Source: Mesorhizobium sp. (GTDB lineage: Bacteria > Pseudomonadota > Alphaproteobacteria > Rhizobiales > Rhizobiaceae). Taken from it: a DNA stretch of 64,000 nt. The notes beneath the pieces were generated by a model, which was not told where the DNA came from, did no database searches, and saw only the letters and a list, made by a program, of their open reading frames with translations. Below, piece by piece: positions 7,201 to 36,625 of the stretch. A program made the translations under genes and the position numbers. Position 1 is the first letter of the stretch. Every line of letters begins with the position of its first letter. Where the stretch lies: the NCBI RefSeq assembly GCF_004020545.1, contig NZ_SAQE01000006.1; one strand, written 5' to 3'.

Positions 7201-8094
7201 TCACGCCGAAACTAATAGCAGGGCGGCAGCCCACACAAGCAGTATCGCACCCGCTGCCTGGCTTGCCACCCTGCCTGTGGTCTGTTTTTCGATCAGGGTG
7301 AACAGGCCGATCAGCGCCATCCAGAAGATGTTCATCGCCCCGACGGCGAACATCACCAGCATCAGCGCCCAGCAGCAGCCGAGGCACCAGACGCCCTGCT
7401 CCATCCCCAGGCGAAAGATGCGCCCGGGTTTCGCGCTCCAGTTGGCGAACAGGATCGAGAACGGATTCCGGCATTTCTTCAGGCAGGCCTGCTTCAGGCC
7501 GCTGAATTGATAGAGGCCGGCAACCGCCAGGGCGGCCGCCCCGGCAAACCCTACGACAGGATCGAGCACCTGCCCCGAGGCGGCAAAAGCATAGATCGTA
7601 AGCGTCAGCGCTGCGAACACCACCGAGGCGGCAAGCCAGGTCGCGAGGTATCCTGCCACCAGAACCAGCGGATGGACCACCGGCTCCCTCTTGATCCGGG
7701 CCGTATCCGCAATCTCGCAATAGGTTCGGATCATCGGCGCTGCCGAAGGCAGCATCGCCGCCACAGCCATCAGGAACCACATCAGGATAAGCGCCAGCGC
7801 CTGCACGCCCGCGGAGCCAGCAAGCGGCGCGGGCGCAAGGCACAGGGCAAAAAAGCGGTCGAGGAAATACGGCAGCGGCAAGCGCGGCAGGTCCTTGAGC
7901 AGGGCATCGCCCGGAGCGCCACCGGCCAGGCGGCCTTCGGCGCCGCGTATCGCCATGGCAGCGAGGATGAACCAGGCAAGCATGATGCCCGCGCTGATGA
8001 TGAGCGTCACCGCAAGGCGCGGGCTGCGCGCAAGTCCCGCCGTGGCGCGGCCGGCGCGGTCTAGATGGCTGAAATCGTGCTCCTGGCCGGTCAT
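7201..8094 (-). CDS. DUF2182 family integral membrane protein (putative metal-binding)
   Basis: Polytopic protein from ATG 8094 (MTGQEHDFSHLDRAG...MWFLMAVAAMLPSAAPMIRTY...CLGCCWALMLVMF...). It is the usual partner of DUF1326, whose start lies 12 nt downstream. The longer track ORF start (8265) would run into the divergent ubiH-like promoter region. Confidence 0.7.
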   Translation of the reverse strand: MTGQEHDFSHLDRAGRATAGLARSPRLAVTLIISAGIMLAWFILAAMAIRGAEGRLAGGAPGDALLKDLPRLPLPYFLDRFFALCLAPAPLAGSAGVQALALILMWFLMAVAAMLPSAAPMIRTYCEIADTARIKREPVVHPLVLVAGYLATWLAASVVFAALTLTIYAFAASGQVLDPVVGFAGAAALAVAGLYQFSGLKQACLKKCRNPFSILFANWSAKPGRIFRLGMEQGVWCLGCCWALMLVMFAVGAMNIFWMALIGLFTLIEKQTTGRVASQAAGAILLVWAAALLLVSA

Positions 8095-9615: not shown

Positions 9616-9939
9616 ATGAAAACGGCCAAATTCGCGATCGGACAAGTGGTTCGCCACAAGCTGTTTCCGTTCCGTGGCGTGATCTTCGACGTCGATCCGC
9701 AATTCGCCAACACGGAAGAATGGTATGATGCCATTCCATCGGAAATGCGTCCGCGCAAGGACCAGCCCTTCTACCACCTTCTCGCCGAGAATTCCGAGAC
9801 CGAGTACATCGCCTACGTGTCCGAGCAGAACCTGCTCGAGGACCGGTCGGGCGAGCCGGTCCGGCATCCGCGGATCGGCGAGATGTTCGACAAGCTGCCC
9901 GACGGGCGCTACGAGCCGAAACGCCACTCGAAGCACTGA
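9616..9939 (+). CDS. hspQ: Heat shock protein HspQ (YccV-like hemimethylated-DNA-binding domain)
   Basis: MKTAKFAIGQVVRHKLFPFRGVIFDVDPQF...PFYHLLAENSETEYIAYVSEQNL parallels E. coli HspQ (FGIGQQVRH...GVVVDIDP...WYHVV). The track ORF begins at GTG 9604; ATG 9616 is the more likely start. Confidence 0.8.
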   Translation: MKTAKFAIGQVVRHKLFPFRGVIFDVDPQFANTEEWYDAIPSEMRPRKDQPFYHLLAENSETEYIAYVSEQNLLEDRSGEPVRHPRIGEMFDKLPDGRYEPKRHSKH

Positions 9940-9963
9940 AAGCTCGACCGGTGGCAACAAAAA

Positions 9964-9989
9964 AGCGGGGCGTTTGCCCCGCTGTTTTG
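9964..9989. terminator. Bidirectional rho-independent terminator between convergent hspQ and ialB-like genes
   Basis: AGCGGGGC-gttt-GCCCCGCT stem, flanked by an A-run (acaaaaaa) on the left and a T-run (tgtttt) on the right. Confidence 0.8.
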
Positions 9990-10013
9990 CATGCTGGAGA
10001 AACGCTCCGGCGA

Positions 10014-22467: not shown

Positions 22468-23994
22468 CTAAGCCAAATCCACTTCGACCCACAGCCCACC
22501 GGGACCACGGGCACGATCGCGCGGCGCACTGCGCACCGCCAGGATCGAGCCTGAGGGCGAAGCGAAAGCTGGCTTTCCATTGGCATTCGCCAGCCAGGCA
22601 TCGTCGGCCCGAATGACGCGGCCCTTGGTCTTCGCTTCGAGCGCGGTCAGGATCGCGCCATAGGGCATCTCGCCCCAATGGATCTTCAACGCATCCAGCT
22701 TGTTGGTGGGAACGAAAGCCGAGAGGTCCGGGCTCGTTATCAGGTCGAGTCCCTGTTTTTCCGGCGTGGCGTTCTGGCTGCCGTGATGCGCGACCTTCAG
22801 ATAGACGGTGCGCGCCAGAAGGTCGGCGGTGGTGACGGTCGCCGCTCCCACCTGGAACTTCAGATCCTTCCAGCTCAGCCAGTTGCCGATCTGGGCGTCG
22901 CCCGGGAACAGGAAGACGCGGCCGGTGTCGATGAATTCGAAGGCGAGCACCAGGCTGGTGTTGTTGACGCCGCGATCGAGCTGCAGCGCGAGGTCGGCGG
23001 CAATTGCCATCCAGTCGGCGTCGATGCGGCGCCAGGACTGGTCGCGATCCTCCATGGGTGCTGCGCCCGAAACCGACCCGGAATAGTGCTTGCTGGTAAA
23101 GGCGCCGATATCGACGGCCGGATCGCTGCCCTTGTCGCCGTTCAGCGCCGCGGAGAGCGGCGTGCCGATGTTGCGTTCGAAGGGACTGAGTTCGTCGATA
23201 TAGGTCGCATCGTCGGCCTGATTCATCTTCAGCCCGGATGCGAGCGCCCGTGCAAACGGCCCGCCGCTGGCGAGCGGAAACATCTCGCTCGCCTTTTCCT
23301 CCAGTCGGAGAGCTGCCTTGTCGCGCGGCGGACCGAGCACATAAATCCGAAGATTGGGCAGTTCCGCGATGGATTGCGGCGCCCCGCCGGGCTCGAAATA
23401 GGTGGGCGATGGTTTTGCGGACAACTTTGCCGCGGCATTGCGCGCCGAACGCACCCGTTCCCCGGCCGCGCCGAACTGGAAGCCGAGCACGGCCTGCAGG
23501 CCGTCGCGGACGCTCGCCATGTAAGGGTTGAGCCCCTGCATGCCGTCAAGCTTCTGGCCCGCGCCCTGCAGCGCGGCGAGCGCCTGGCCCTTGAACTTGT
23601 CGAGCTCCACGGCTTCGGCATCGGCGGGGTTTTCGGTCCAAGCCATCCAGACATCGCCGACTGCAAAATCCTTGAACAGGTCCTTCGCGGTCAGGAATCC
23701 CGAGACGTGGTCCCAGTGCTCATGCGTGACGACGAGCACATCGATCCTGCCGCCCGTCTCCTTTTTAAGGTCGGCGACGATGTCGGCAACGAGCGCCGGA
23801 CCGCCTGTGATCGATACGTGGATGCCGCAATCGATCAGCATGCGGAACAGCGAGCCATCCGGCTTCGTGAAGGTGAGCAGGTGGCAGTCGCCGATGCCTT
23901 GGCAATAGTGCCGGACGGTGACGGCCGACGCGTGCGTCGTCGCGGAAGCCGTGGTGTCAACGGGCCTTCTCTTTGCCGCGGGCCTTCTAGACAT
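22468..23994 (-). CDS. MBL-fold metallo-hydrolase, ComEC/Rec2-like subtype with a large internal insertion
   Basis: 508 aa from ATG 23994 (MSRRPAAKRRPVDTT...). It has the HxHxDH motif VVTHEHWDHVSGF, a late FPGDAQ and VAHHGSQN. The start lies inside the last codons of the upstream protease gene (CATGTCTAG, 8-nt overlap). Confidence 0.8.
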   Translation of the reverse strand: MSRRPAAKRRPVDTTASATTHASAVTVRHYCQGIGDCHLLTFTKPDGSLFRMLIDCGIHVSITGGPALVADIVADLKKETGGRIDVLVVTHEHWDHVSGFLTAKDLFKDFAVGDVWMAWTENPADAEAVELDKFKGQALAALQGAGQKLDGMQGLNPYMASVRDGLQAVLGFQFGAAGERVRSARNAAAKLSAKPSPTYFEPGGAPQSIAELPNLRIYVLGPPRDKAALRLEEKASEMFPLASGGPFARALASGLKMNQADDATYIDELSPFERNIGTPLSAALNGDKGSDPAVDIGAFTSKHYSGSVSGAAPMEDRDQSWRRIDADWMAIAADLALQLDRGVNNTSLVLAFEFIDTGRVFLFPGDAQIGNWLSWKDLKFQVGAATVTTADLLARTVYLKVAHHGSQNATPEKQGLDLITSPDLSAFVPTNKLDALKIHWGEMPYGAILTALEAKTKGRVIRADDAWLANANGKPAFASPSGSILAVRSAPRDRARGPGGLWVEVDLA

Positions 23995-26900
23995 GGTCGT
24001 CGTCTCCGTCGCTGGCATGCAGCAGGGCGAAGGGTTCCGACACCTCGCCGCCGAAATAGAGCGCTCTGAGCGGCGACAGATAGTTTGCCGCCATCGTCCC
24101 GGCCTGCCGCTTCTGCCGGTCCGCGCTGCCGGTGTTCTTGATGATCGAGTAGCGGATCTCCTCAAAGCCTTCGCGCGGGTCGATGATGATGGTCGCGCCG
24201 CCGCGGAACCAGAAGAAGCCGTCGCCCTTGTTCACGCCCTGCGGCGCAGCCGTGCCGTCGAAGGCGACGGGTATCCGCTGCTGGATAACGGCGACCACCT
24301 CGACGCGGAACGAACCGTCCGGCTCGACCCGCCGCGTTGGCCGCACGCTGTAGATGTCGAAAGTCGTCTCGCCCTTCTTCGGCGCGTGCATGACCGTGCC
24401 GTCCTCGTTGTAGCGCGGCAGGTCGGGCAGCAGGCCGAACTGCTTGTAGAGGTCCGGGTTGGACGCGAAGGCCTTGTGCATCGCCTTCCACAGCGCGTAG
24501 CGGTTCTTGTCATTGAGGGCGAAGATCTCGGCACGCTTCAGCTTCTGGTTCCAGCCGAGGTCGATCTTGCTCAGCAACCCGTTCAGCCAGGGTGGGGAAG
24601 GGTCTTCCGGCGCGCTCCAGGCGAGCGTCTCTTCCGAAATGGTGCGCACGTCGCGCGGCAAAAGCTTCCACTTGCGGAAGGATTCCAGGAACGCCAGGCG
24701 ATAATGGAGCGGATCGTCCGGATAGGCATCGCGGTCCGCAGTGATCAGCGCGCGCAGATACTCGCCGAAGGTGATGTCGACGGCCGGGCAATAATCGAGC
24801 GCGCGGATGCACATGGTGAGCATCTGCCCGGCGGTCTTGGCAACCTCGTCGGTAAGGCGCTCGACGAGGCTCGGATGCAAGGTGCCGGCCGGCAGGATAC
24901 CGGTACCGCCGGTGGCAAGCTGGATCAGATCGTCGGTGCGGCGGTCGGCGATGGCGATGAACGCCTGATAGACCGCGAAGACGAGGATCGAGCCGCGGTC
25001 ATGCGCCTCGAAGGTCTTGTCGTAGTCGAGGTCGGCCATGCCCGAGCCGCCATATTCGCGCAGTGGTCCGGCCCGGCCGCTGCCTTCACCGAACTGCTTG
25101 GCGATGCCGGAAAGCAGCGACGCCACCGACACATCGCCCCTCGCCTTGCCGATCTCGAAATTCACCAGCTCCTTCAGGGTAAAATGCTGGAACAGCGCAA
25201 CGATGTCGGCAAACGCCTCATGGAAGGCCGGAACGTCCGGATTGGACGCTTCATGGAAGCGGCGATGCAGCCCGTCGAGCAGCGCATGCGACATCTCATG
25301 CGCGATGATGTCGCTGGACAGGCAGGAAAACACCGTGGTCCCGGGTGTGGTGACGTCGCCCTCATTGCTGGTTGCCGGGAAATAGCCGAACAGCAGCGCC
25401 TTCTTTTCCGGGCTGTAGTAGGCGTTCTCGGCGCGCAGCGCGTGTGGATAGATGCGCAGGCGCGGCACATAATGGGCCTTCACCGTCATGTCGCCGCTGC
25501 GGCCGGGGGCTTGCGAATAGTGCGGCGCCCACAGCGCCCGCCGCCCAAGAGCGCGTTCGAAATGGCCGATCGTTGTCATGGCGACCGCGTAGACCATCTG
25601 CTGGTGAAACTTCGGATTGCCTTCCGAAGGCGACAGGCCGTCCTGGGCCAGGAGCACCTTGTCGTTGAGGTCGACAGGATCGTAGACGCGGTCGGAGGCC
25701 GGATCGACATCGACCACCTCGAGATATTCGCCGATCGGGCCTCCCAACAGTGGCTTGTCGGCCGATGGCTCGTCGTCCCAGGGAACCGAGAGCGTCGCCT
25801 GGTGGACCGACACCGAGTCCAATCGCTTGGCGACCGAAGGGTCGAGCGCGTAGATGCGCAGGCGCCGCTGCGGCGGCGGCAGCGGACGCGGCCGGCGCTT
25901 GATCGGCGCCGGGCCTGCAGCGGTAACGGCGACCGGCAGCGGCTTGGCGCCAGCCCTGCCCAGCAACCCTTCGAGAAAGGCCTTGAGCGGCTTCGACGGA
26001 TTGCCTTCGTCGAGAGCGGCCTCGAAATAGCGATTGCGCGCGGCGGCCGAGATCGCGGCCGGATCGCCATCCGGGTCGGCGATCGCCTGGTCGACGGAAG
26101 CGGTGGTTTGCGCCATCTGCATAAGCTCAAGCGCAAACATCCTTTGCCTTTGGACGGCGGCCGGTGGCTGTGCCGCCAGAGAATTGCCGCCGGTGAGCAG
26201 ATCCAGCCAGCTCCATGTGTAGGTGGCCAGCGGCAGTTTCCGGAGCTGGTTCTCAGCCGGTGGGGAGATCGCCAGCGCATCGAAGGCGCGAACTACCCCC
26301 TGCCCGATCTTCTCCAGCGTCTCGGCGGTGTTCATCTTCGGCGTGGATTTCTGCGCCACCTTGAACAGCGCGAAGCGGACGGCCTCGATGCGCATCCATG
26401 GCTGCGGATAAGTCTTCACGCGATCCCAGTGCTCGGCCAGCCAAAGCGCCGCGGCTGCCGCGATCTGCGGCGTCGCCGCCGACGTGCCGTTGCCATCCAT
26501 GTCGACGACCTTGGCGCAGTCGATCTCCGCCCAGGGCACGTTCGGCGTGTAGGCGCCGAGCGCCGACTTCATCTTCGATGGCGGCCCATAGTTGCCCTGC
26601 ATGGTGCCGAAGGCGAGCCCGGCATAGGCGCGGCCGTCGCCCATCACGCCGCATGCCGCCAGCACACGGTTGTAGCGCGCCGGATAAACGATGCTGCGCG
26701 GCGTGATGGCAAAGTTGTTGCCGGCCGCAGTGACCATGACCAGGCCGTGGTCGTAAGCGAGATTGACGGCATCGACCAGCGCTTGCGAGGCGAGGCCGCC
26801 CATGCTCATCGACAGCACCTGGGCGCCTTGCTGGCGCGCATACTCGATGCCTTGCACCATCGTGCCCGTCGTCAGCCGCACCACCCAGTCGGCGATGCGC

Positions 26901-27658
26901 ACCGGAAGGATCTTGGCCCGCGGGGCGCCGCCGACGAAGTCTGTGAAGCCCGGCCAATTTGGCGAGGTGCCGTCGAGCTTGTTGCCGGCAAGCAGGCTGA
27001 GCGTGCCGGTGCCGTGACCGCGATTGCTGGTGAGCGTGCCGGCAGGCGCATGATCGGTCGCGTTGTCCGGTCCGGTGCCGTCATCGACGAAATTGCGCTG
27101 CTTTGCCGCCAGAAGCCCGGCCGGCAATGTGCGATGTCCCGGATCGAAGCCGGTATCGAGATGAGCGATGGTGATGTTGGCCTGCTTGGCGCCGACCCTG
27201 GTGCGGGCGGCCACGAATTGGCTGAAATTCGGCCCGGCGTTCCAAGCGATACCGTCCCGGACGACCGCTTGTCCGCCGCTAGGATCCTGATCGTCGAAGG
27301 TGCAGGCAGGGCTGGCGCTCGCCGCCATGCCGCGATCGCCGTTGCCGTTCTTGTACTCCCATCGCTGTTCGATATCGGGCTCGACTGCCAGGACATCTGC
27401 GCCCGCCGCCGCGAAATCTCCGCCGCGGGCTGCAAGCTTGTGGGCATCGTCCCAGGGATTGTCCGAGCCTGCCGCCTTGGCGGAAACCCGCAGCCAGGTC
27501 GCGCCACGGTCCCCCGCTGCCCCGTAGTCAGCGCCGGACGCACCCGGCGGCAGGGTCAGGATCGGTTCGGCATCGACGCTCTCTATCCCAAGCGACCGGC
27601 CTCGCGCTGCAAGCCCGGTGCCATCACCGCGAACCTTGATCAGGAGTCCCCTCGCCAT
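23987..27658 (-). CDS. Fusion protein: subtilisin-like S8 serine protease + thermolysin-like (HExxH...ExxxD) zinc metalloprotease + unassigned C-terminal region
   Basis: 1223 aa from ATG 27658 (SD GGGGAGGGG). S8 motifs: AHLDTGF (Asp), NRGHGTGTLS (His), TAAGNN (oxyanion Asn), GNGTSAATPQIAAAAAL (Ser). A linker PIKRRPRPLPPPQRR follows, then IIAHEMSHALLDG and AFHEAFADIVALF. There is no hydrophobic N-terminal signal peptide. The 1300-aa opposite-strand ORF is an Arg/Ala-rich shadow. Confidence 0.85.
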   Translation of the reverse strand: MARGLLIKVRGDGTGLAARGRSLGIESVDAEPILTLPPGASGADYGAAGDRGATWLRVSAKAAGSDNPWDDAHKLAARGGDFAAAGADVLAVEPDIEQRWEYKNGNGDRGMAASASPACTFDDQDPSGGQAVVRDGIAWNAGPNFSQFVAARTRVGAKQANITIAHLDTGFDPGHRTLPAGLLAAKQRNFVDDGTGPDNATDHAPAGTLTSNRGHGTGTLSLLAGNKLDGTSPNWPGFTDFVGGAPRAKILPVRIADWVVRLTTGTMVQGIEYARQQGAQVLSMSMGGLASQALVDAVNLAYDHGLVMVTAAGNNFAITPRSIVYPARYNRVLAACGVMGDGRAYAGLAFGTMQGNYGPPSKMKSALGAYTPNVPWAEIDCAKVVDMDGNGTSAATPQIAAAAALWLAEHWDRVKTYPQPWMRIEAVRFALFKVAQKSTPKMNTAETLEKIGQGVVRAFDALAISPPAENQLRKLPLATYTWSWLDLLTGGNSLAAQPPAAVQRQRMFALELMQMAQTTASVDQAIADPDGDPAAISAAARNRYFEAALDEGNPSKPLKAFLEGLLGRAGAKPLPVAVTAAGPAPIKRRPRPLPPPQRRLRIYALDPSVAKRLDSVSVHQATLSVPWDDEPSADKPLLGGPIGEYLEVVDVDPASDRVYDPVDLNDKVLLAQDGLSPSEGNPKFHQQMVYAVAMTTIGHFERALGRRALWAPHYSQAPGRSGDMTVKAHYVPRLRIYPHALRAENAYYSPEKKALLFGYFPATSNEGDVTTPGTTVFSCLSSDIIAHEMSHALLDGLHRRFHEASNPDVPAFHEAFADIVALFQHFTLKELVNFEIGKARGDVSVASLLSGIAKQFGEGSGRAGPLREYGGSGMADLDYDKTFEAHDRGSILVFAVYQAFIAIADRRTDDLIQLATGGTGILPAGTLHPSLVERLTDEVAKTAGQMLTMCIRALDYCPAVDITFGEYLRALITADRDAYPDDPLHYRLAFLESFRKWKLLPRDVRTISEETLAWSAPEDPSPPWLNGLLSKIDLGWNQKLKRAEIFALNDKNRYALWKAMHKAFASNPDLYKQFGLLPDLPRYNEDGTVMHAPKKGETTFDIYSVRPTRRVEPDGSFRVEVVAVIQQRIPVAFDGTAAPQGVNKGDGFFWFRGGATIIIDPREGFEEIRYSIIKNTGSADRQKRQAGTMAANYLSPLRALYFGGEVSEPFALLHASDGDDDHV

Positions 27659-27846
27659 GGCGCACCCCTCCCCGGAAATGGAATCATGGCGTCGGCCGTC
27701 GTCTCCAGTCAAGCCAAGTTTCAAGCCATGATTCGATCGGTCTATTTGCCACCAGGAAATCAAGCCGATTGTGTTTCGGCACGATATGCTTGGCGTCCGA
27801 AACATACATTCGGAAAATGACGATCGCGCCGAGTGACAGAGGCTTC

Positions 27847-27862
27847 TGTGATCGCCTTCACA
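27847..27862. promoter_or_regulatory. Perfect CRP-type box TGTGA-N6-TCACA in the divergent protease / crp-like intergenic region
   Basis: TGTGATCGCCTTCACA read directly from the sequence. Its centre is ~197 nt upstream of the protease ATG (27658) and ~340-395 nt upstream of the regulator start candidates. Confidence 0.65.
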
Positions 27863-28248
27863 TACGTCGGGCGAGCTTCACGCACAAATATTGCACCGGG
27901 TGGCACTGGCTTCTGCTTCGATGCACAGGTCCGACAAGGCTTCCGGCCTGAAAATGGGCCGTTCCTCGGCAAGGAATTTCGATCACCTAGCCATTTTCAG
28001 ATTTGCTGTCTGCGCGCGTAGGCACCTCCCACCGACGCGCGCGGACGGCGTTTCGAAGATCGATCGCGCTCCGCCAGGCGTGTCAGTCAATCAATTGCGG
28101 GGTCACCTGTTTTTCGAAGCAGGTTGGCGTCCGGGACTGCTGCCAGAGGCATGTCGCCCGGCGACTGGCGACCATGAACGGAGACGAAGCTATGATCGAG
28201 CATGCACTTGTCCTACAATTTCCCCTCAACGAGAGGCGGAATCGCATC

Positions 28249-28935
28249 ATGGCCACAGCCGGCATAGACGACAGGAGCGCCGTGCCGCGCCTGGCGCGGA
28301 TCGACCCGCGCCAGTTCGAGCTGCTGTTCGGCGGCTGCAAGGTCGAACGCTACGCCGCCGGTCAGCACCTGTTCGTTCAGGAGGATGCGTCCGACCGCAT
28401 CTATGGCGTGATGAGCGGCACCGTCGAAATCTCGCTCTATTCGCCGGGCGGACAGAAGCTGGTGGCCAATATCGAGCTCTCGCGCAGCCTTGTCGGCGAG
28501 ATCGGCGCCCTGGACGGACGCCCGCGCACGGCCACCGCCATCTGTCACACCGCTTGCGAGCTGGTTTCACTCAGCCGAACACAACTCTTTGATCGCATTG
28601 AAAAAAATCCGTCGCTGGCGCGTGCCATGATCGAACTGCTATGCGCGCGGCTGCGCTGGGTCAGCGGCGAACTAGGCGACCAGGCTTTCTTCGGCATCGA
28701 GGCCCGACTGGCGAAGCGGCTGGTGTTCCTCAGCGGTGTCATGGCAGACCCTGCCGGCTGGGTTCCGATCTCGCAGTCGGAGCTTGGCGAGTTCCTCGGC
28801 GCGACGCGCGAATCGGTCAACAAGACGCTCAACGACTGGCGCAACCGGCACATGATCGCCATCAAGCGCGGAGGGCTGCGCATCACCAACGCCGCCGCGC
28901 TGAACCAGATCGCCGAATCGCAGGACGACGACTGA
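28249..28935 (+). CDS. Crp/Fnr-family cNMP-binding transcriptional regulator
   Basis: cNMP-binding fold (YAAGQHLFVQEDASDRIYGVMSGTVEISLYSPGGQKLV...GEIGALDGRPRTATAI) plus a C-terminal HTH ISQSELGEFLGATRESVNKTLNDW with a CRP-like R-E pair. In-frame alternative starts exist at 28174 and 28192 (GGAG before 28192). Confidence 0.85.
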   Translation: MATAGIDDRSAVPRLARIDPRQFELLFGGCKVERYAAGQHLFVQEDASDRIYGVMSGTVEISLYSPGGQKLVANIELSRSLVGEIGALDGRPRTATAICHTACELVSLSRTQLFDRIEKNPSLARAMIELLCARLRWVSGELGDQAFFGIEARLAKRLVFLSGVMADPAGWVPISQSELGEFLGATRESVNKTLNDWRNRHMIAIKRGGLRITNAAALNQIAESQDDD

Positions 28936-28953
28936 GCGAGCCGGCCCCCCGAA

Positions 28954-31900
28954 TCAGAGCCGCGAAATCAGGTATCGCAGCGCGGACCGGCTCGGCATGA
29001 AGAAGTAGCCGCCGCCCTTCGTGGTGACGAATTGCGGCACGTCCTTGAGCATGGTGACCTTTTCCCATGATGGGATCGAGAACCGGCCGCCACCGTCACG
29101 CGCACCGATCGTCGGATCCTTTTCCGCGACCAGGCCCTGGAACGAGCTCGAGGAAACCCAGGTCTGCTGGATGAACTCGTACTGACGCTCGATGTCGGCG
29201 TTGAGGCACATGAAGAGCAGCCCCTTCTCGACCTTCCCGCTCCGGTCCTGCTTTTCATAGGTGCGGCCGACGCGCAGGATGCGGTGGCGCTTGCCGATCC
29301 TGATCTGCGTCTCGCGGTCCTCGCCAAGCGAATCGCGCGGATTGGAGCGGCGTATGTGCGAGCCGAGCGGGCAGCGATGCCCTTGCGGGTCTTCCACACC
29401 AAGCGCGAAATCATTGTCGGTGCCGCGGCCCGGGCGGCCGTCGGGGTTGCGCACCAGCGAACTGCCGTCCTGCCAGCGCCCCAGCATCTTGGCCGCCACC
29501 CAGCGCGGCGTGACGGCATCGTCGCCAGTCTCGCGCGCAGCCAGCGCGGCGGCATGCTTGCAGTAGTCGTTGAACAACTCGACATGCTGCTCGAACTGGC
29601 GCACGACGAGGAAGGAACCGTTGCGGCCGAAGTCGCGTGGCGGCGGAGGCTGACCGGGAATCTGCCGGTTCCGCCGCACCTGCGACAGGATGCCTATCCG
29701 ATCCTGCGCCGCCTGGACGGAGGGCGAGGCCGGATAAAACCCGTGCTCGTCGCGATAGCCGAACAGGAATTCGCCGGGCGCGACCAGATGCATCGGTGCG
29801 GCCCCCTTGTTGGCGCGCGACGTGCCCCTGACGATCGGTTGCGAGACACCGTCGGCGAAGCCGAAATGCTCATAGGCGCGCTGGCGCTCGGGCTTGCCGT
29901 TGTTGCCGATATGCTGGGATTTCACGCCCTCCTTCTTGGGCTCGCGGTTCACGACAAGCGGCAACTCGGCGACGATCTTCATCCCGGCGCCTGCCGTCTT
30001 TCGCTTCGCGGCGGTGACCTCGGCCTTGAGCGCGGCCGGCTCCTTGGCGTAGCAGATGACAACCGCGTCGACCGGCGTCTTGGCCGAGCCCCATTGCCAT
30101 TTGTCGGGCGCGTCCGGCCCTTGGTCGTCGAGGATGCGGCTGCGCTCAGGATTTCCCATGCCGTGACGAAAAGCGACCGGAAACGTGTCCAACGGATCAT
30201 CGTCGACGCCGCCCTCCAGCCCGAGCCGACGAAGGCCGTCGGGGCCGAAGGCGACTGTCATGGCCCGTCCGGCGGGCACGCCGTCGCCGAAGCTGGTTTT
30301 ATCGATGACGAAGTCCAGCCATGCCTTGCGTTGCATTGCCGGCAGATCCTCGGGCACCCGGATTGCCAGCATATGCCCGTAACCGAGCGCGCCGAAAGGA
30401 CCGAAGAAGATCGATTGGATCTCGCCGGCTTCCAGTTCTTCGAGAGGCGAAGGGGCCGGCTCGCGGCCGACGGTTTCCGCCGGCCTCGCCTGCGGCCGCT
30501 GCAACGAGCCGAACAGGCTCACCCAGTCGCGCGCCTCGTTGCCGATGGCCGAAGCCATGCCGCGCCTTATCCTGGAGTTGATGCGGATGCGGGTGGTGTT
30601 GAGATGCGGATAGGCGGAATACCAGAAGAGCGTCGGCACCTGCTGGCGCCGCGCCCAGCGCTTGAAGCGGTCGCCGTCGCGCGCGCCGTCGAGGAAGAGC
30701 CAGCGCGTGCGCGGATAACCTTCCGTGTTGCTCCACACCCCGGTCAGGCCTTCGGAGGCCTTGGCTATGAAGTCCTCCAGATAGCTTTCCCAGCTACCGC
30801 CGTAGTTGGAGAAGAACATGAGCTTGCCGGTACCCGGCAGCAGCACCCAACGCGCGAAGTGGATGGTGTTGATGGTGGCAAGGAAGCCCGGCTTGAACAC
30901 CTTCTGCGCCGATATCGAGATCAGGTAGAAGGTGAGCCTCAGCGCCAGCCGCCGCAAGGTGCCCGCCTTCATCGTCGAGATCGCGGTGAGATGGTTCTGC
31001 GCGCAGTGGTCCTCATTGGCGAGGATCTTGTCCAGGGCGCCTATGTCGACCGGCGTGCTCTGCGGCCGGTCCTTGTCCTCGAGGCGCCGCAGGCCGAGGA
31101 AGCACAAGCCGACGAACAGCAGGGCTATCGCCAGCAGCCCCAGAAGGGCCAGCAGAAGTGCGGTGCCGGCAATCGCGATGTTGGTGAAGGTGATGCCGTG
31201 GGGGTTTCCGAACACAAGCAAATAGGTCATGCGCCAGCAGGCAAGTACGACGATCGCGACGGTGACGAGCACTGCCGGCGCGAGCAACGTCGTGGTCAAG
31301 GCCCGCCACCAGCGGCCCGGCGGCCGCTCCAGCAGGCTTTCGGCCGGCTCGAAGGCCCAGCCGAATTGTCCCAGCGCCTGGGCATGGCGACGTGCCTCGG
31401 TAAGGACCGCAAGGGCGTTGCCGGTACCGGCGCGCGGCTTTTCGACGATCTCGCGCACACTGTCGGCAAGCCTGGCCTCGGCCAGGATGCGGCGCACCGA
31501 ATGGCCGGGCGTGCCCGAAAAAACCAGCCCCGCCGTGCTGCCGAAGGACGGCGATATTTCGATATGATGTTTCTTCAGGAAATCCTCCAGCGAGCCGCCG
31601 TCGGACAGGCCGCAAACATCCCTGAAAATCGGCCTCAGCCGGTGGCCTATGGCCTGCGTGATGGCGCCGATGACATCGTTGGTGCTGCCGTCGCCGGAGA
31701 TTTCGAACACGAGCGCCCCCGTGTCGAGGCCCGATCTCTCGTCCTTCCCGGTGGCGGCGACGGCCAGGCTGGTGAAATGTATCGATCCGACCTTGTCGAG
31801 CGCACCGCCCACCTCGTCGATCGCCGGATTGCCGAGGGCGCCGACCTTGTCGCGGACGGCGTCCAACGGCACGGCGCAGGTGATCGGGCAAACCACGGTG

Positions 31901-33234
31901 ACCATTGATTGGTCGACCGTGCGGCAAAGCGGTGAGCGCTCGAAATCGACCTTGAGGTTCGCTGGATAAGCGCCGACATAGGCCAATTTGCCGGCCCTGC
32001 CCCGGACGCGATTGAGCTTTGGCTTGCTGAACAGGGCGCGAACGCATTCGCCGATCTGTATCCGGGCGATCTCCGCACCGATGCACAAGTGAATGCCGTG
32101 GCCGAAAACCATGTAATCGCGGTGTGGCCGCGAGGTATCGAATTCTTTTGGCCGTTGCACGATTTCCGGATCGAACATCGCCGACAGCGTTGCCGGCATC
32201 ACGACCGTTCCCGCCTTGACCAGATGCTCGCGGCGCGTGCCCTGGCCGATGATCGCGTCACGCCTGGTGTAACGCCAGGGCCCGATCCAGATCGGCTTGA
32301 AGCGCATGGCTTCGAGTATCGCCCTGTCGAGCTTGTCGATGCTGTCCTCGGCAAGCGCCGCATCGACGGCCTGCCGCGCATCGGTGCGCGACAGGATCAC
32401 GTCCAGGCAATTGCCCCCGGCAAGCACGTTGGTCGGCACGAAGCCGGCGATCATGCCGAGCATGATGGAGTGGATATCGGGCAGCGACAGACGCTTCTGA
32501 TCGAGCTGGGCGACAAGCCGCGCCAGCGGCCGGTCGTCTTTCTCCTGCCTGTTTCTGATCGCGGCGATCGAACGATCGATGACCTTGATCAGGCGATCTC
32601 CGCCGACGACCGCGAGTTGGCGCGTGGTGGCGTCGGCAAACGGATCGGAGAAGAACAGCGCGCTGAGCGCGATCGACCAGTCGGCGAATTCGGTCTCGTC
32701 GTCGATCTCGAGGCCGAAATAGTCCCGGCAGATGCGCACCGGGACGATCTTCATCAGCCCGGCGACAGCATCGAAGCCCGGGGCGGCGCGGGTCATGATA
32801 TCGCGCGAATGGCGCTCGGCGATCGGCCTGACGGTGGTTTCGACCTGCGACGGCGGAAAGGCGCTGAGCACGGCGGACTTCATCTGCCGATACGCGGCGC
32901 CGTCCTGCATGCCGAGAATGAAGTTCGATCCCCTCGCCAGCTCGGTCATTTCCGGCCCGTATGGCGTCTCGAACTCGTCGCCGCGTTCCAATATGTCGCG
33001 GACGTCCACACCCTTGGTAACGAGGAGAAATCTGCTACCTATGGCGAGGTTCGGGTGGCAGCGCCGCAGCCAGGCCAGCCACCAATGAGGATGATCCTGC
33101 ACCAGGAACCTGGCTATGCGCGCCGACAGGCCCTTCTTGCGCAGCCGATCGATGTCGAAAGGCGGCATTGCCGACACGGGGCCTTGTTTTTTCTGGGCTT
33201 CCCAAATGCCTTTGAAATACTTCCAGTTGATCAT
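28954..33234 (-). CDS. Fusion hemoprotein: cytochrome P450 + two-TM hairpin + conserved unassigned domain + DyP-type peroxidase
   Basis: Uninterrupted 1426-aa ORF. P450: ExxR (LEAMRF) and Cys loop FGHGIHLCIGAEIA. TM helices: WWRALTTTLLAPAVLVTVAIVVLACW and IAIAGTALLLALLGLLAIALLFVGLCFLGL. Mid motif: TIHFARWVLLPG...FFSNYGGSWESYLEDFI. DyP: EHFGFADGVSQP, GSHIRRSNPRD, RILRVGRTY, LLFMCLNADIERQYEFIQQTW. Confidence 0.88.
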   Translation of the reverse strand: MINWKYFKGIWEAQKKQGPVSAMPPFDIDRLRKKGLSARIARFLVQDHPHWWLAWLRRCHPNLAIGSRFLLVTKGVDVRDILERGDEFETPYGPEMTELARGSNFILGMQDGAAYRQMKSAVLSAFPPSQVETTVRPIAERHSRDIMTRAAPGFDAVAGLMKIVPVRICRDYFGLEIDDETEFADWSIALSALFFSDPFADATTRQLAVVGGDRLIKVIDRSIAAIRNRQEKDDRPLARLVAQLDQKRLSLPDIHSIMLGMIAGFVPTNVLAGGNCLDVILSRTDARQAVDAALAEDSIDKLDRAILEAMRFKPIWIGPWRYTRRDAIIGQGTRREHLVKAGTVVMPATLSAMFDPEIVQRPKEFDTSRPHRDYMVFGHGIHLCIGAEIARIQIGECVRALFSKPKLNRVRGRAGKLAYVGAYPANLKVDFERSPLCRTVDQSMVTVVCPITCAVPLDAVRDKVGALGNPAIDEVGGALDKVGSIHFTSLAVAATGKDERSGLDTGALVFEISGDGSTNDVIGAITQAIGHRLRPIFRDVCGLSDGGSLEDFLKKHHIEISPSFGSTAGLVFSGTPGHSVRRILAEARLADSVREIVEKPRAGTGNALAVLTEARRHAQALGQFGWAFEPAESLLERPPGRWWRALTTTLLAPAVLVTVAIVVLACWRMTYLLVFGNPHGITFTNIAIAGTALLLALLGLLAIALLFVGLCFLGLRRLEDKDRPQSTPVDIGALDKILANEDHCAQNHLTAISTMKAGTLRRLALRLTFYLISISAQKVFKPGFLATINTIHFARWVLLPGTGKLMFFSNYGGSWESYLEDFIAKASEGLTGVWSNTEGYPRTRWLFLDGARDGDRFKRWARRQQVPTLFWYSAYPHLNTTRIRINSRIRRGMASAIGNEARDWVSLFGSLQRPQARPAETVGREPAPSPLEELEAGEIQSIFFGPFGALGYGHMLAIRVPEDLPAMQRKAWLDFVIDKTSFGDGVPAGRAMTVAFGPDGLRRLGLEGGVDDDPLDTFPVAFRHGMGNPERSRILDDQGPDAPDKWQWGSAKTPVDAVVICYAKEPAALKAEVTAAKRKTAGAGMKIVAELPLVVNREPKKEGVKSQHIGNNGKPERQRAYEHFGFADGVSQPIVRGTSRANKGAAPMHLVAPGEFLFGYRDEHGFYPASPSVQAAQDRIGILSQVRRNRQIPGQPPPPRDFGRNGSFLVVRQFEQHVELFNDYCKHAAALAARETGDDAVTPRWVAAKMLGRWQDGSSLVRNPDGRPGRGTDNDFALGVEDPQGHRCPLGSHIRRSNPRDSLGEDRETQIRIGKRHRILRVGRTYEKQDRSGKVEKGLLFMCLNADIERQYEFIQQTWVSSSSFQGLVAEKDPTIGARDGGGRFSIPSWEKVTMLKDVPQFVTTKGGGYFFMPSRSALRYLISRL

Positions 33235-33313
33235 GCGCGTTCGGCCCCCCGGCTGTCCACGTCACTGCGATGCCGGCCGTCTCTTTGGCCTAGGTTTGGT
33301 TCGGTCCGGCGTA

Positions 33314-33329
33314 TGTGAATTCCGTCACA
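33314..33329. promoter_or_regulatory. Perfect CRP-type box TGTGA-N6-TCACA upstream of the P450-DyP gene
   Basis: TGTGAATTCCGTCACA read directly, in the 119-nt gap between the cyclase stop (33354) and the P450-DyP ATG (33234). Its centre is ~88 nt upstream of the ATG. Confidence 0.7.
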
Positions 33330-33353
33330 GTCCTTTGTCTTCGGCGATGGTGA

Positions 33354-35135
33354 TCATGCAATGGACTTGGCTTGGTCGAAATTGGCGATCAGGAAGTTGT
33401 TTTTTGCCGCGTCTACGAACGGTATCCAGCGAATTCTCTGCTCGGAAAAGTCGGGATGTCTGGTCGCGAAAATGGCAAGTTCCCGCTTGGCCTCGTCGCG
33501 GCGGCCGCTTCGCATCAAGGCGCCGATCTTGAGAAACCTGGCGTAGAAATAGCCCGGCGAAAGGTTGAGCGAGCGATCGGCAATTGCAATTGCCGCGGGC
33601 CAGTCCTCGACGAAGCAGTATGCGGCGGCCAGTTCCCCAAGATTGTGGAAGCGGTAGAGGTCGAACGGGCTGAGCCGCTCAGTATCCAGGAAGAACGGGA
33701 TCGCGCCTGCGGCATCGCCGAGCAGCAGGCGCGCGCTGCCCATTGCCGAGCGGGCGAAAGCAAAGCTCGGATTGATGTGGATCGCTTCGGCCAGATGCTC
33801 GGCGGCCGACGCCGGCTGGCCGCGCATGATGTCGGCCGCGCCAAGATAAGCGTGCGGGCGCGCGTCGAGGCTGTCCATCAGAAGCGCTTTGCGCGCCAGC
33901 GCCTCGACCTTGTCCAGGTCGTCGCTGTCGCCGAAGCGCAGCCAGGCCCGCCAAAAATACCACCATGCCAGTTCGTTCAGCACGGCGCTGGAATTCGGAT
34001 CCTCCTGGTAGGCCTTGTCGAAGAATTCGAGTGCGATTTCCGTGTCGCTTCGCGTGCGCCTGTTCATGTGCCAGCGGCCGCGCCGCACCAATTGCCAGGT
34101 CTCGAGACTCTCCCATGGCACCTGGAAGGTCCGCACCTGCTCGGCCCGGTCGACTTCCTTGTCGAGGATCGAGACGATCTCGGAGCCGATCTGGTCGCGC
34201 AGGCTGAAGATATCGACGAGGTCGCGGTCGAAGCGCTGTGACCAGACGAGGCGCCCGTTCGACGTATCGGTGAGCGAGGCATTGAGGCGTATCTGCCCGT
34301 TGTGGCGCGCCAGCGTGCCGCTGACGATGTAGCGCGCGCCGAGCGCATTGCCGATGAGCCTGGTCCCGAGGCTGTCGTCGCGGAACTGGAAGCTTGAGCC
34401 CTTGGCGATCACCGAAAGCCAACGGGTATTGGAGAGGCCATAAATGATATCCTCGGCGATACCATCGGCCATGTATTCGACATCGGGCTCGCTTCCGTCG
34501 CCCTGGAACGGCAGCACCGCGATTGCCGGCGGTCCCTTGGCAGCGGGTTTGTAGTGACCGGGCGCTGTGGGGATGGCGGCCAAGGGAGCCGCCATCGCGG
34601 CACCGTTGCCATCGCGCCCGGCTATCAGGACGCGCACCGGCAACGCGATGTTCTTCAGCATGAACTCGCCGAGATCGGTGAAATTCGCTGCCGTCTTGTC
34701 CTTGACGTGATGCCAGGTCGTCTCGGAAATGGCGAGGCCGTCATGCGGGGCGAACTCCTGGAGCCGGGCGGCAATGTTGACGTCGTCGCCATAGAGGCGG
34801 CCTTCGCGGACGATGACGTCGCCTGTGTTGATCCCGGCCCGGAACGGCATGCGCATCTCTTCGGCGACCGAGGCATTGAGTGCCATGATCCGATCCTGGA
34901 AATCGAAGGCCGCGCGCAAGGCTTCGATCGGATTGCCGAATTCGGCCATGATGCTGTCGCCGGCGACGCCAAAGGTGCGGCCGCCAAAGGCGCCGCAGCT
35001 GTCGGTGATGATATCGCGCCTTTCCTCGAAGGCCGCGACGGCAAGTTCGTCATCGATTCCCATCAGCCGTGAAAAGCCCACGGCGTCGATAGAAATGATG
35101 GTCGCGAGCTGACGGGTATAGTTCCGTTCAGCCAT
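33354..35135 (-). CDS. Class III adenylate/guanylate cyclase with C-terminal TPR region
   Basis: 593 aa from ATG 35135: MAERNYTRQLATIISIDAVGFSRLMGIDDE...FGVAGDSIMAEFG...GINTGDVIV...YGDDVNIAARL (CYCc motifs), followed by a long helical-repeat/TPR-like C-terminal half. Confidence 0.85.
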   Translation of the reverse strand: MAERNYTRQLATIISIDAVGFSRLMGIDDELAVAAFEERRDIITDSCGAFGGRTFGVAGDSIMAEFGNPIEALRAAFDFQDRIMALNASVAEEMRMPFRAGINTGDVIVREGRLYGDDVNIAARLQEFAPHDGLAISETTWHHVKDKTAANFTDLGEFMLKNIALPVRVLIAGRDGNGAAMAAPLAAIPTAPGHYKPAAKGPPAIAVLPFQGDGSEPDVEYMADGIAEDIIYGLSNTRWLSVIAKGSSFQFRDDSLGTRLIGNALGARYIVSGTLARHNGQIRLNASLTDTSNGRLVWSQRFDRDLVDIFSLRDQIGSEIVSILDKEVDRAEQVRTFQVPWESLETWQLVRRGRWHMNRRTRSDTEIALEFFDKAYQEDPNSSAVLNELAWWYFWRAWLRFGDSDDLDKVEALARKALLMDSLDARPHAYLGAADIMRGQPASAAEHLAEAIHINPSFAFARSAMGSARLLLGDAAGAIPFFLDTERLSPFDLYRFHNLGELAAAYCFVEDWPAAIAIADRSLNLSPGYFYARFLKIGALMRSGRRDEAKRELAIFATRHPDFSEQRIRWIPFVDAAKNNFLIANFDQAKSIA

Positions 35136-35247
35136 GGTTGAGCCCCCGGTCCCTGCTTTCGGTCCAGAACAGGCGACTTCCGCTGGAAAAAGCACTTCGC
35201 CGTTTGCCGACAAAACAATCCCCGGCAGGCTCGGCGCGCCGTTGCCA

Positions 35248-35274
35248 CCCTGTTAGGCCGGAAGTCTAACAGGG
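35248..35274. promoter_or_regulatory. Perfect 9-bp inverted repeat upstream of the cyclase gene (operator candidate)
   Basis: CCCTGTTAG-gccggaagt-CTAACAGGG, ~115-140 nt upstream of ATG 35135, with no adjacent U-tract on either strand. Confidence 0.4.
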
Positions 35275-35547
35275 TCTGGCCAAAAGCTCTACCACGAACA
35301 GCTAATGGAATGCGTCTGCGGCCCGACCCATGGTTAGCCCTTTGTTACCTGAAGCACCAGGTAGCAGAAACTTCCTTACATATTGAAATCCCGAGACTTT
35401 GGCTTTTTCAGGAGCTTGCAAACGAACCATGGAAGCGCTCTTGCCAGCCAGTCCGTGGAGCAGGCATTATCCGACCGTGGCGGAACCAACCCGGCTGGGA
35501 TGCGAATTTTTCAGCGCACTCATGCCAACACGAGATTGAGGGCAGTC

Positions 35548-35805
35548 ATGCGCGCTGTTGTTTTGGCAAGCAGTATTGCGTTTTTCCTTATCGGCGAGCC
35601 GGCTTTCGCGGCGGAGGAGCAAGCGGTGCCGCCGCAAAATTCCAAGAAACTCTCGGAAATCGTCGCCAAGGTCGAGAAGCGGAGCGACTTTCGCTACGTG
35701 AAGGGGGTCGACTGGAGTAGCGACGGATATACCGTCACCTACTACACGACCGACAAGGCCAAGGTCGAAATCACCTATGATCCGGTGACCGGGGAGCCGA
35801 AATAG
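35548..35805 (+). CDS. PepSY-like small periplasmic protein
   Basis: 85 aa from ATG 35548 (SD GAGGG): signal peptide MRAVVLASSIAFFLIGEPAFAAEE, then LSEIVAKVEKRSDFRYVKGVDWSSDGYTVTYYTTDKAKVEITYDPVTGEPK (PepSY pattern). Confidence 0.65.
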   Translation: MRAVVLASSIAFFLIGEPAFAAEEQAVPPQNSKKLSEIVAKVEKRSDFRYVKGVDWSSDGYTVTYYTTDKAKVEITYDPVTGEPK

Positions 35806-35896
35806 GCGCGTCCGGGCTCCTTCCGGTTTCAGCCATTCCGCATGGCATGTTGTCCGCATAGATTGACGCGCGAAGCCGACAAGGCAGGAGGAGAAT

Positions 35897-36625
35897 ATGC
35901 GCTTCCCCATCCAAGCGATCGCTTGGCTCGTGCCTGCATTGGTGCTGGGCATATCGCTGCCGGCGCGGGCGGATGGACCGTCCTTCGACTGCCGGAAGGC
36001 TCAATTGCCGGCTGAAAAGACAATATGCGCGGACGCGCAGATGTCGGCGATCGATGTGCTGGTCGCCAAGGCCCTTAGAGGCTTCGAGCCCGCCTTCGGC
36101 GGCGACAAGCGCAAGATCGCCAGACAATTGGCTGCGGACCGGAATGCCTGCAAGGCGGACGCCGCCTGCATCGTCAGCGCCCAGAACAACGCGCTGCAGA
36201 CTTATGGCTCGGCGCCCTCCTGGGTTGAGGAGTACAATATCGCCTTGATCGGCAAGAAGGCGCTTGATCTGGCGGCACGAACACCCAGGCCGGTGGACCA
36301 GCCCCTTCCCTCTTCGATCGGGAGATGCGGCTTCACCCATATCAAGACGCTGACGGCAAGGCTGGGCGACGACCCGCTGGCAACCGCCAGCCCGGAAGCC
36401 GGGAGCGCTGCGACGTTCACCAATGGCGGAGCCGCGGTTTCCTATGACCGTGAGCCGGGGCTGGCGGGTTCAAAAGTCGGCGATCCAGTCGTCATGTGCC
36501 TGATCTCGATCCCGCGCGATTGTCCGCAAGGCGATTTGCGCGGCAGGGTCTATTACGGCGTAGATCTCGCCGGCAAAGGCACATGGTCCCTGCCAGACTC
36601 GCAGCACCTGTGCGGTGGCGCCTGA
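35897..36625 (+). CDS. Hypothetical secreted protein with LprI/DUF1311-like N-terminal motif
   Basis: 242 aa, SD AGGAGGAG, signal peptide MRFPIQAIAWLVPALVLGISLPARADG, then FDCRKAQLPAEKTICADAQMSAIDVLVAKAL. Confidence 0.6.
   Translation: MRFPIQAIAWLVPALVLGISLPARADGPSFDCRKAQLPAEKTICADAQMSAIDVLVAKALRGFEPAFGGDKRKIARQLAADRNACKADAACIVSAQNNALQTYGSAPSWVEEYNIALIGKKALDLAARTPRPVDQPLPSSIGRCGFTHIKTLTARLGDDPLATASPEAGSAATFTNGGAAVSYDREPGLAGSKVGDPVVMCLISIPRDCPQGDLRGRVYYGVDLAGKGTWSLPDSQHLCGGA

Follow-up and report, generated by a model that had tools for sequence, protein, structure and literature searches.

A conserved CRP-type palindrome upstream of a Mesorhizobium P450-DyP fusion gene as a predicted class II activator site

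The 119-nt gap between the stop codon of a nucleotide cyclase gene and the ATG of a P450-DyP fusion gene in Mesorhizobium sp. holds a perfect palindrome, TGTGAATTCCGTCACA (33314-33329; box 1), that is very probably a genuine CRP-type site because it is conserved, together with the neighbouring cyclase and regulator genes, across Mesorhizobium and its relatives. Its spacing to a conserved -10-like element supports the assignment of box 1 to a class II, activator-dependent promoter for the P450-DyP gene. We consider it likely, on the strength of sequence and conservation, that box 1 serves as operator in a compact cyclic nucleotide circuit that is complete in itself, in which the cyclase would act on the regulator and the regulator would exert class II activation of P450-DyP. 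The features concerned, all within the window (the whole 64,000-nt stretch that was analysed), are the following.

23987-27658, minus strand: S8 subtilase-family protease gene (Peptidase_S8); the mechanical ORF reaches 27805
27820-27825, minus strand: predicted -10 of the protease promoter, GATCGT here and GATTGT in most relatives
27847-27862, unstranded: box 2, perfect palindrome TGTGATCGCCTTCACA located between the divergent S8 protease and regulator genes
28249-28935, plus strand: gene for a regulator of the CRP family of cNMP receptors, 228 aa if translated from its likely start, the ATG at 28249; the mechanical ORF runs from 28003
28954-33234, minus strand: P450-DyP target gene, 1426 aa, with a P450-like N-terminal part, hydrophobic middle stretches and a DyP-type peroxidase C-terminal part
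33278-33282, minus strand: predicted transcription start, ~33280, where this strand has an A; derived from where the -10 lies
33287-33293, minus strand: predicted -10, C-TAGGCC, with T(-12) at 33292 and A(-11) at 33291, recognized by its conservation
33314-33329, unstranded: box 1, perfect CRP-type palindrome with its centre at a predicted -41.5 in the P450-DyP promoter (minus strand)
33354-35213, minus strand: class III nucleotide cyclase gene with a C-terminal TPR region, a 619-codon ORF with its stop codon at 33354-33356

Box 1 and its conservation

Box 1 is a 16-bp inverted repeat of the form TGTGA-N6-TCACA with two perfect half-sites. It begins 25 nt past the cyclase stop, and its centre (33321.5) lies 87.5 nt from the A of the P450-DyP ATG (33234). 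The TGTGA-N6-TCACA pattern occurs twice in the 64-kb window against an expectation of 0.03, and at least two such sites are found in 0 of 100 shuffles of the window. Both boxes fall within the cyclase/regulator cluster, and no additional box is present in the window when one mismatch is allowed or when the shorter core GTGA-N6-TCAC is used. Read along the window, the order is protease gene, box 2, regulator gene, P450-DyP gene, box 1 and cyclase gene; base composition over the cluster is unremarkable, and the P450-DyP protein is 98% identical to a protein from a Mesorhizobium chromosome.

One genome per species was scanned for relatives of the P450-DyP fusion protein, which are encoded in 453 stretches, and the best 80 loci were analysed. 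These come from Mesorhizobium, Allomesorhizobium, Pseudaminobacter, Aquamicrobium, Borborobacter and Nitratireductor, with protein identities of 52-92%. All 79 loci with enough upstream DNA have a box with no more than one mismatch in the 150 nt before the P450-DyP start, and 67 of these boxes are perfect, as against a background rate (at most one mismatch, elsewhere in the 1.8 Mb of locus DNA) of 0.0064 per such stretch. Perfect boxes in the 1.8 Mb of flanking DNA are almost all the cassette's own two. As the 80 loci are related, these counts are not independent, a point that is partly answered by how differently half-sites, spacer and flanks behave among the 19 most diverged sequences, where identity is 0.95 in the half-sites, 0.59 in the spacer and 0.51 in the other flank columns. 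Judged from the alignment, such near-invariant half-sites around a free spacer are the signature of a protein-binding site. The earlier note had described a perfect CRP box in the 119-nt gap with its centre about 88 nt before the ATG; the position is read directly from the sequence, and the exact half-sites, the 0.03 sites expected per window and the retention in every orthologous locus with enough upstream DNA bear the description out.

The surrounding genes are conserved as well. The cyclase gene directly upstream and the convergent regulator gene downstream are found in essentially every sufficiently long locus among the 80, and two more distant loci (51-54% identity) carry the identical three-gene set with degenerate boxes.

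Several loci depart from the common layout. In L063 (Borborobacter arsenicus, ~9903-10000) the box is perfect, ~29 extra nucleotides precede the AAACCTAGC element so that the box sits near -70.5, and the regulator gene is absent within 10 kb; rearrangement may have given this locus a class I-like layout. Three loci of the Allomesorhizobium/Pseudaminobacter group have one more perfect box, ~600 nt before the cyclase gene (L053, 7482-7497; L058, 7477-7492; L078, 4541-4556), and the one in L053 precedes CCTAGGCC and a 67-aa ORF (7617-7820); the extra box suggests an additional target or a feedback loop in this lineage. The Nitratireductor-type loci L062, L068, L069, L071 and L074 have the box CGTGAACTGCTTCACA, whose spacer ACTGCT is the same as that of the Rhodospirillum centenum cgrA-operon box (PMC10187061), a match that is probably a coincidence.

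Promoter geometry

When the loci are aligned without gaps and anchored on the box, a TA dinucleotide is found exactly 21 nt past TCACA in 78 of the 80 loci, and its identity in the most diverged set is 0.92, compared with 0.51 for other flank columns. The -10-like element to which it belongs reads C-TAGGCC in Mesorhizobium and TATGTC, TAGATC, TAGGCT or TATAGC in other genera. The rhizobial sigma-70 -10 consensus is CTATAT (PMC2873474), and the element at box 1 resembles its front half; the proposed TAGGCC is a weak -10 that is defined by conservation alone. With the T of the dinucleotide as -12, the centre of box 1 falls at -41.5 and 22 bp separate the site from the second base of the -10, a spacing that, according to a review, is exclusive to class II CAP promoters (PMC10187061). 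The hexamer at -35 to -30, CATACG, matches TTGACA at 2/6 positions, so that the -35 is poor or absent and the promoter should need an activator. These traits support the reading of box 1 as part of a class II activator-dependent promoter for the P450-DyP gene.

The predicted start at 33280 implies a leader of ~46 nt to the ATG at 33234, in agreement with the leader of a few tens of nucleotides that the earlier note had assumed. The same note had allowed for class I and class II positions from -41.5 to -61.5. The -41.5 position fits the conserved -10 spacing, whereas -61.5 is ruled out as a shared arrangement, since in some orthologues, those of the Nitratireductor type, just 57 nt lie between the box centre and the ATG. 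For the same reason, only -41.5 fits the Nitratireductor-type loci, where it leaves a leader of ~15 nt with a GAGGGGA ribosome-binding site. The start codon of the P450-DyP gene is itself backed by invariant M1, K5 and Y6 in an alignment of 14 homologues.

Two other promoter candidates were rejected. A consensus sigma-70 scan gave no promoter that uses the conserved -10, and its sole match, which is weak and overlaps the ATG (33259-33230), finds no support in conservation. A promoter on the plus strand has neither TA nor A-N4-T at class II distance on that side of the box, and the conservation seen there is accounted for by the last part of the cyclase reading frame.

That the fusion gene has its own promoter, as had been proposed, is well supported by the box and the fixed -10 spacing. 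The accompanying claim that the gene is not simply read through from the cyclase gene does not stand in full: no terminator-like site is called in the 119-nt gap between the cyclase and P450-DyP genes, so additional read-through from the cyclase gene is possible and may account for part of P450-DyP expression.

Genes of the proposed circuit

The domain identities of the fusion protein and of the cyclase agree with those given before: the former matches Pfam p450 and Dyp_perox_C, and TIGR01413 over residues 1044-1418, and the latter Guanylate_cyc and TPR. By eye, the fusion protein contains the P450 Cys-ligand loop FGHGIHLCIG, the DyP motifs GFADG and SHIRRSNPR, and two long hydrophobic stretches at about residues 640-720 with a membrane-spanning look. 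The protein may thus be a membrane-anchored enzyme with two haem domains. In the literature we found nothing specific on the P450-DyP fusion, on the locus or on a Mesorhizobium CRP regulon.

The only CRP-family regulator gene in the window is 28249-28935; its end lies 19 nt from the convergent P450-DyP stop codon, and its product is presumed, from its sequence, to be the protein that binds the boxes. It matches cNMP_binding (PF00027, E 4e-16), HTH_Crp_2 (PF13545, E 4e-14) and PF00325, and its best solved relatives are GlxR (E 3e-22), Clr (7pza, 2.7e-21), Mycobacterium tuberculosis CRP (5.6e-21) and Escherichia coli CAP (1.3e-17). With 66.9 bits against the NCBIfam CRP equivalog NF008732 (cut-off 266), it is not an E. 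coli CRP orthologue. The recognition F-helix RESVNK aligns to RETVNK of GlxR and is invariant across 77 co-located homologues apart from one I and one R variant. In the RETVGR helix the first, second and last residues contact TGTGA and the last can be Lys, which gives an R-E-x-x-x-R/K rule (PMC10187061); the helix of the local regulator conforms to this rule for TGTGA readers. The phosphate-binding cassette GEIGALDGRPRTATA (GE...RTA) is intact, aligns with those of GlxR and Clr, and is conserved in the 77 co-located homologues; helix and cassette are both maintained alongside the box. The C-helix carries V-S, not the T-S of CAP (T127-S128) or the T-N of GlxR and Rv3676 (RLRWVSGEL versus RLRRTNASL in GlxR). 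As the T-S/T-N signature is lacking, the ligand and its selectivity are not readable from this helix, and nucleotide dependence of the regulator is assumed.

The cyclase probably starts at Met27 of its ORF, the ATG at 35135. Its catalytic domain is PF00211 (E 2e-6), with 3mr7 as the best solved relative (E 1e-24). Comparison with 3mr7 and Rv1900c locates the metal-binding Asp residues in SIDAVGF and AGDS, and the Asn/Arg pair in DVNIAAR. The adenine-specifying Lys is missing: a Gly is aligned to the Lys of 3mr7 and the Asn of Rv1900c, and Gly is found at this substrate-specifying position also in the cyclase orthologue of L053. Since Gly replaces the substrate-specifying Lys, the product could be cAMP or cGMP. 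The window contains no paralogues of the cyclase or regulator families elsewhere in its 64 kb.

Box 2 is conserved in the core Mesorhizobium loci, including loci without the protease gene (e.g. L003). Wherever the protease gene is present, GATTGT is found on the protease side 21 nt past box 2, and the element keeps A(-11) and T(-7). Box 2 thus appears to have class II geometry toward the S8 protease gene, which is a probable second target. The protease probably starts at the ATG at 27658, which is preceded by GGGGAGGGG, a strong ribosome-binding site, and tblastn matches to the protease in relatives mostly begin at residues 42-49 of the mechanical ORF, with the conserved protein beginning near residue 43-50. 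A start at 27658 implies a protease leader of ~155 nt from a predicted transcription start at ~27811-27813; annotation from 27805 would make the protease ~49 codons too long.

On its other side, which faces the regulator gene, box 2 has the flank TCACATACG in common with box 1, and a conserved ATAT occurs ~24 nt from the box, at a non-canonical distance. Because the box is kept in loci without the protease gene and shares the TCACATACG flank with box 1, autoregulation is possible, and box 2 may also control the regulator gene. The intergenic region between the protease and regulator genes (27659-28248) is unusually long, ~590 nt, and includes a conserved block, ATTTCGATCACCTAGCCATTTTC (~27977-27999), that lies directly beside box 2 in some relatives.

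Taken as a circuit, the TPR-containing class III cyclase just upstream would make a cyclic nucleotide, cAMP or cGMP, and the convergent CRP-family regulator would bind it and dimerise on TGTGA-N6-TCACA. The bound regulator would then recruit RNA polymerase from a site at -41.5 that overlaps the position of the missing -35, 21 nt before the weak -10 C-TAGGCC, and the P450-DyP gene would thereby get its own start at ~33280 with a leader of ~46 nt. At box 2 this arrangement would be repeated for the S8 protease gene, and feedback on the regulator gene may be exerted there as well. The sequence of the boxes, their rarity, conservation and fixed spacing, and the domains and motifs of the proteins are observed; binding by the regulator, activation over repression, the start site and the signal are the parts of this circuit that we infer.

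Alternative readings, related systems and implications

The site could be functional and yet belong to another CRP-family protein, perhaps a global regulator, whose gene lies elsewhere in the genome, the neighbouring regulator gene being linked to the locus for some other reason; we regard this as unlikely. Rhizobial genomes usually contain several CRP/FNR-family genes. The window covers 64 kb of the genome, Mesorhizobium genomes encode other CRP/FNR-family regulators beyond it, and L063 keeps its box with no regulator gene within 10 kb. Against this, the regulator gene and the box are linked in nearly all of 82 loci from several genera, the recognition helix of the neighbouring regulator is invariant and of the TGTGA-reading type, and perfect boxes in the flanking 1.8 Mb are almost confined to the cassette's own two, all of which argues for the neighbouring protein as the one that acts at box 1.

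A regulator bound at box 1 might instead repress or block, for instance by limiting read-through from the cyclase gene, with P450-DyP as the distal gene of a cyclase operon. This is quite unlikely: a road-block needs neither the fixed 21-nt spacing to TA nor an absent -35, both of which are typical of class II promoters, and the same geometry recurs at box 2, where an upstream co-directional gene is absent. What speaks for repression is the 119-nt gap without a terminator-like site and the fact that CRP-family proteins such as GlxR also repress (PMC10187061). It is highly improbable that the palindrome is a chance match, given the 0.03 sites expected per window, or that it functions in the RNA, where it would form a hairpin or terminator at the 3' end of the cyclase transcript. 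Its location 25 nt after the cyclase stop and a possible 5-bp stem would suit such a role, but the fold of the region is no better than that of shuffled sequence (z-score 0.24), neither a U-tract nor a terminator is called at the palindrome, and an Rfam match is absent in 27000-36000. Moreover, both arms are invariant and show no compensatory changes, and their 16-bp register is that of a protein site.

The predicted mechanism at box 1 is that of a classical class II CRP promoter, so its value lies in regulon prediction and no new principle is involved. The class II CAP/CRP promoters of E. coli have the same TGTGA-N6-TCACA core, the same 22-bp spacing to the second base of the -10 and no -35. 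The E. coli system differs from the local one in its F-helix (RETVGR, not RESVNK) and in its cyclase, which is the class I CyaA and not a class III enzyme with TPR repeats. In the 64 kb in view, the local system also appears to serve a two-promoter cassette and not a global regulon.

As a system, the locus is by analogy most like CgrA of R. centenum, and also like the cyclase-Clr-target cascade of Sinorhizobium meliloti. CgrA, with gcyB-gcyC, is likewise an alphaproteobacterial CRP homologue beside cyclase genes; a perfect TGTGA-N6-TCACA occurs in a promoter region of that cluster too, and CgrA and the local regulator have the R-T variant of the phosphate-binding signature in common (PMC4681086, PMC10187061). 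In R. centenum, where CgrA responds to cGMP, the operon under control of the box is that of the cyclases and the regulator itself, and CgrA, with hundreds of binding sites, governs cyst formation; unlike that box, the local ones face an enzyme gene and a protease gene. Clr with CyaD1/CyaD2/CyaK and the target smc02178 is likewise a rhizobial cascade that leads from class III cyclases through a CRP-like activator to a few target promoters. It has the F-helix RPKVNR and the site GTNNC-N4-GNNAC (HGTYHCNNNNGRWACA), whereas the local regulator has RESVNK (PMC10127613, PMC10187061). A Clr-type site at box 1 was therefore rejected, as box 1 fails the GTNNC-N4-GNNAC core on both strands (motif from PMC10127613). 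Among the best solved matches, GlxR of Corynebacterium glutamicum and CRP Rv3676 of M. tuberculosis have RETVNK, the R-T signature and CAP-like TGTGA sites (PMC10187061); these are global regulators of actinobacteria, act as activators as well as repressors, and have T-N in the C-helix as opposed to the local V-S.

The cyclase without the adenine-specifying Lys, together with a regulator that has a CgrA-like R-T and an unusual V-S C-helix, allows the tentative and rather unlikely reading of a dedicated circuit from sensor to enzyme whose signal is not cAMP but cGMP or a mixture of cNMPs. If this were true, the locus would join CgrA and Clr as the third cGMP/CRP system in bacteria, and, in a plant-associated family, a signal sensed by the TPR region would turn on both a membrane-anchored P450-DyP double-haem enzyme and a large S8 protease.

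For the likely circuit with cAMP or cGMP as its signal, the mechanism is textbook, and its value lies in regulon annotation and in a route to the function of the enzyme. To our knowledge, Clr and CgrA are the only CRP-type systems that have been worked out in alphaproteobacteria, and the locus would offer a compact three- or four-gene system for CRP-type class II activation in this class. The prediction is that the enzyme is made only when the neighbouring TPR-cyclase raises the cyclic nucleotide, and it suggests that the enzyme may be induced by overexpression of the cyclase or by added cNMP. Through box 1, the regulation of the P450-DyP fusion enzyme, which is widespread in Mesorhizobium and related genera but uncharacterised, would become accessible to concrete tests.
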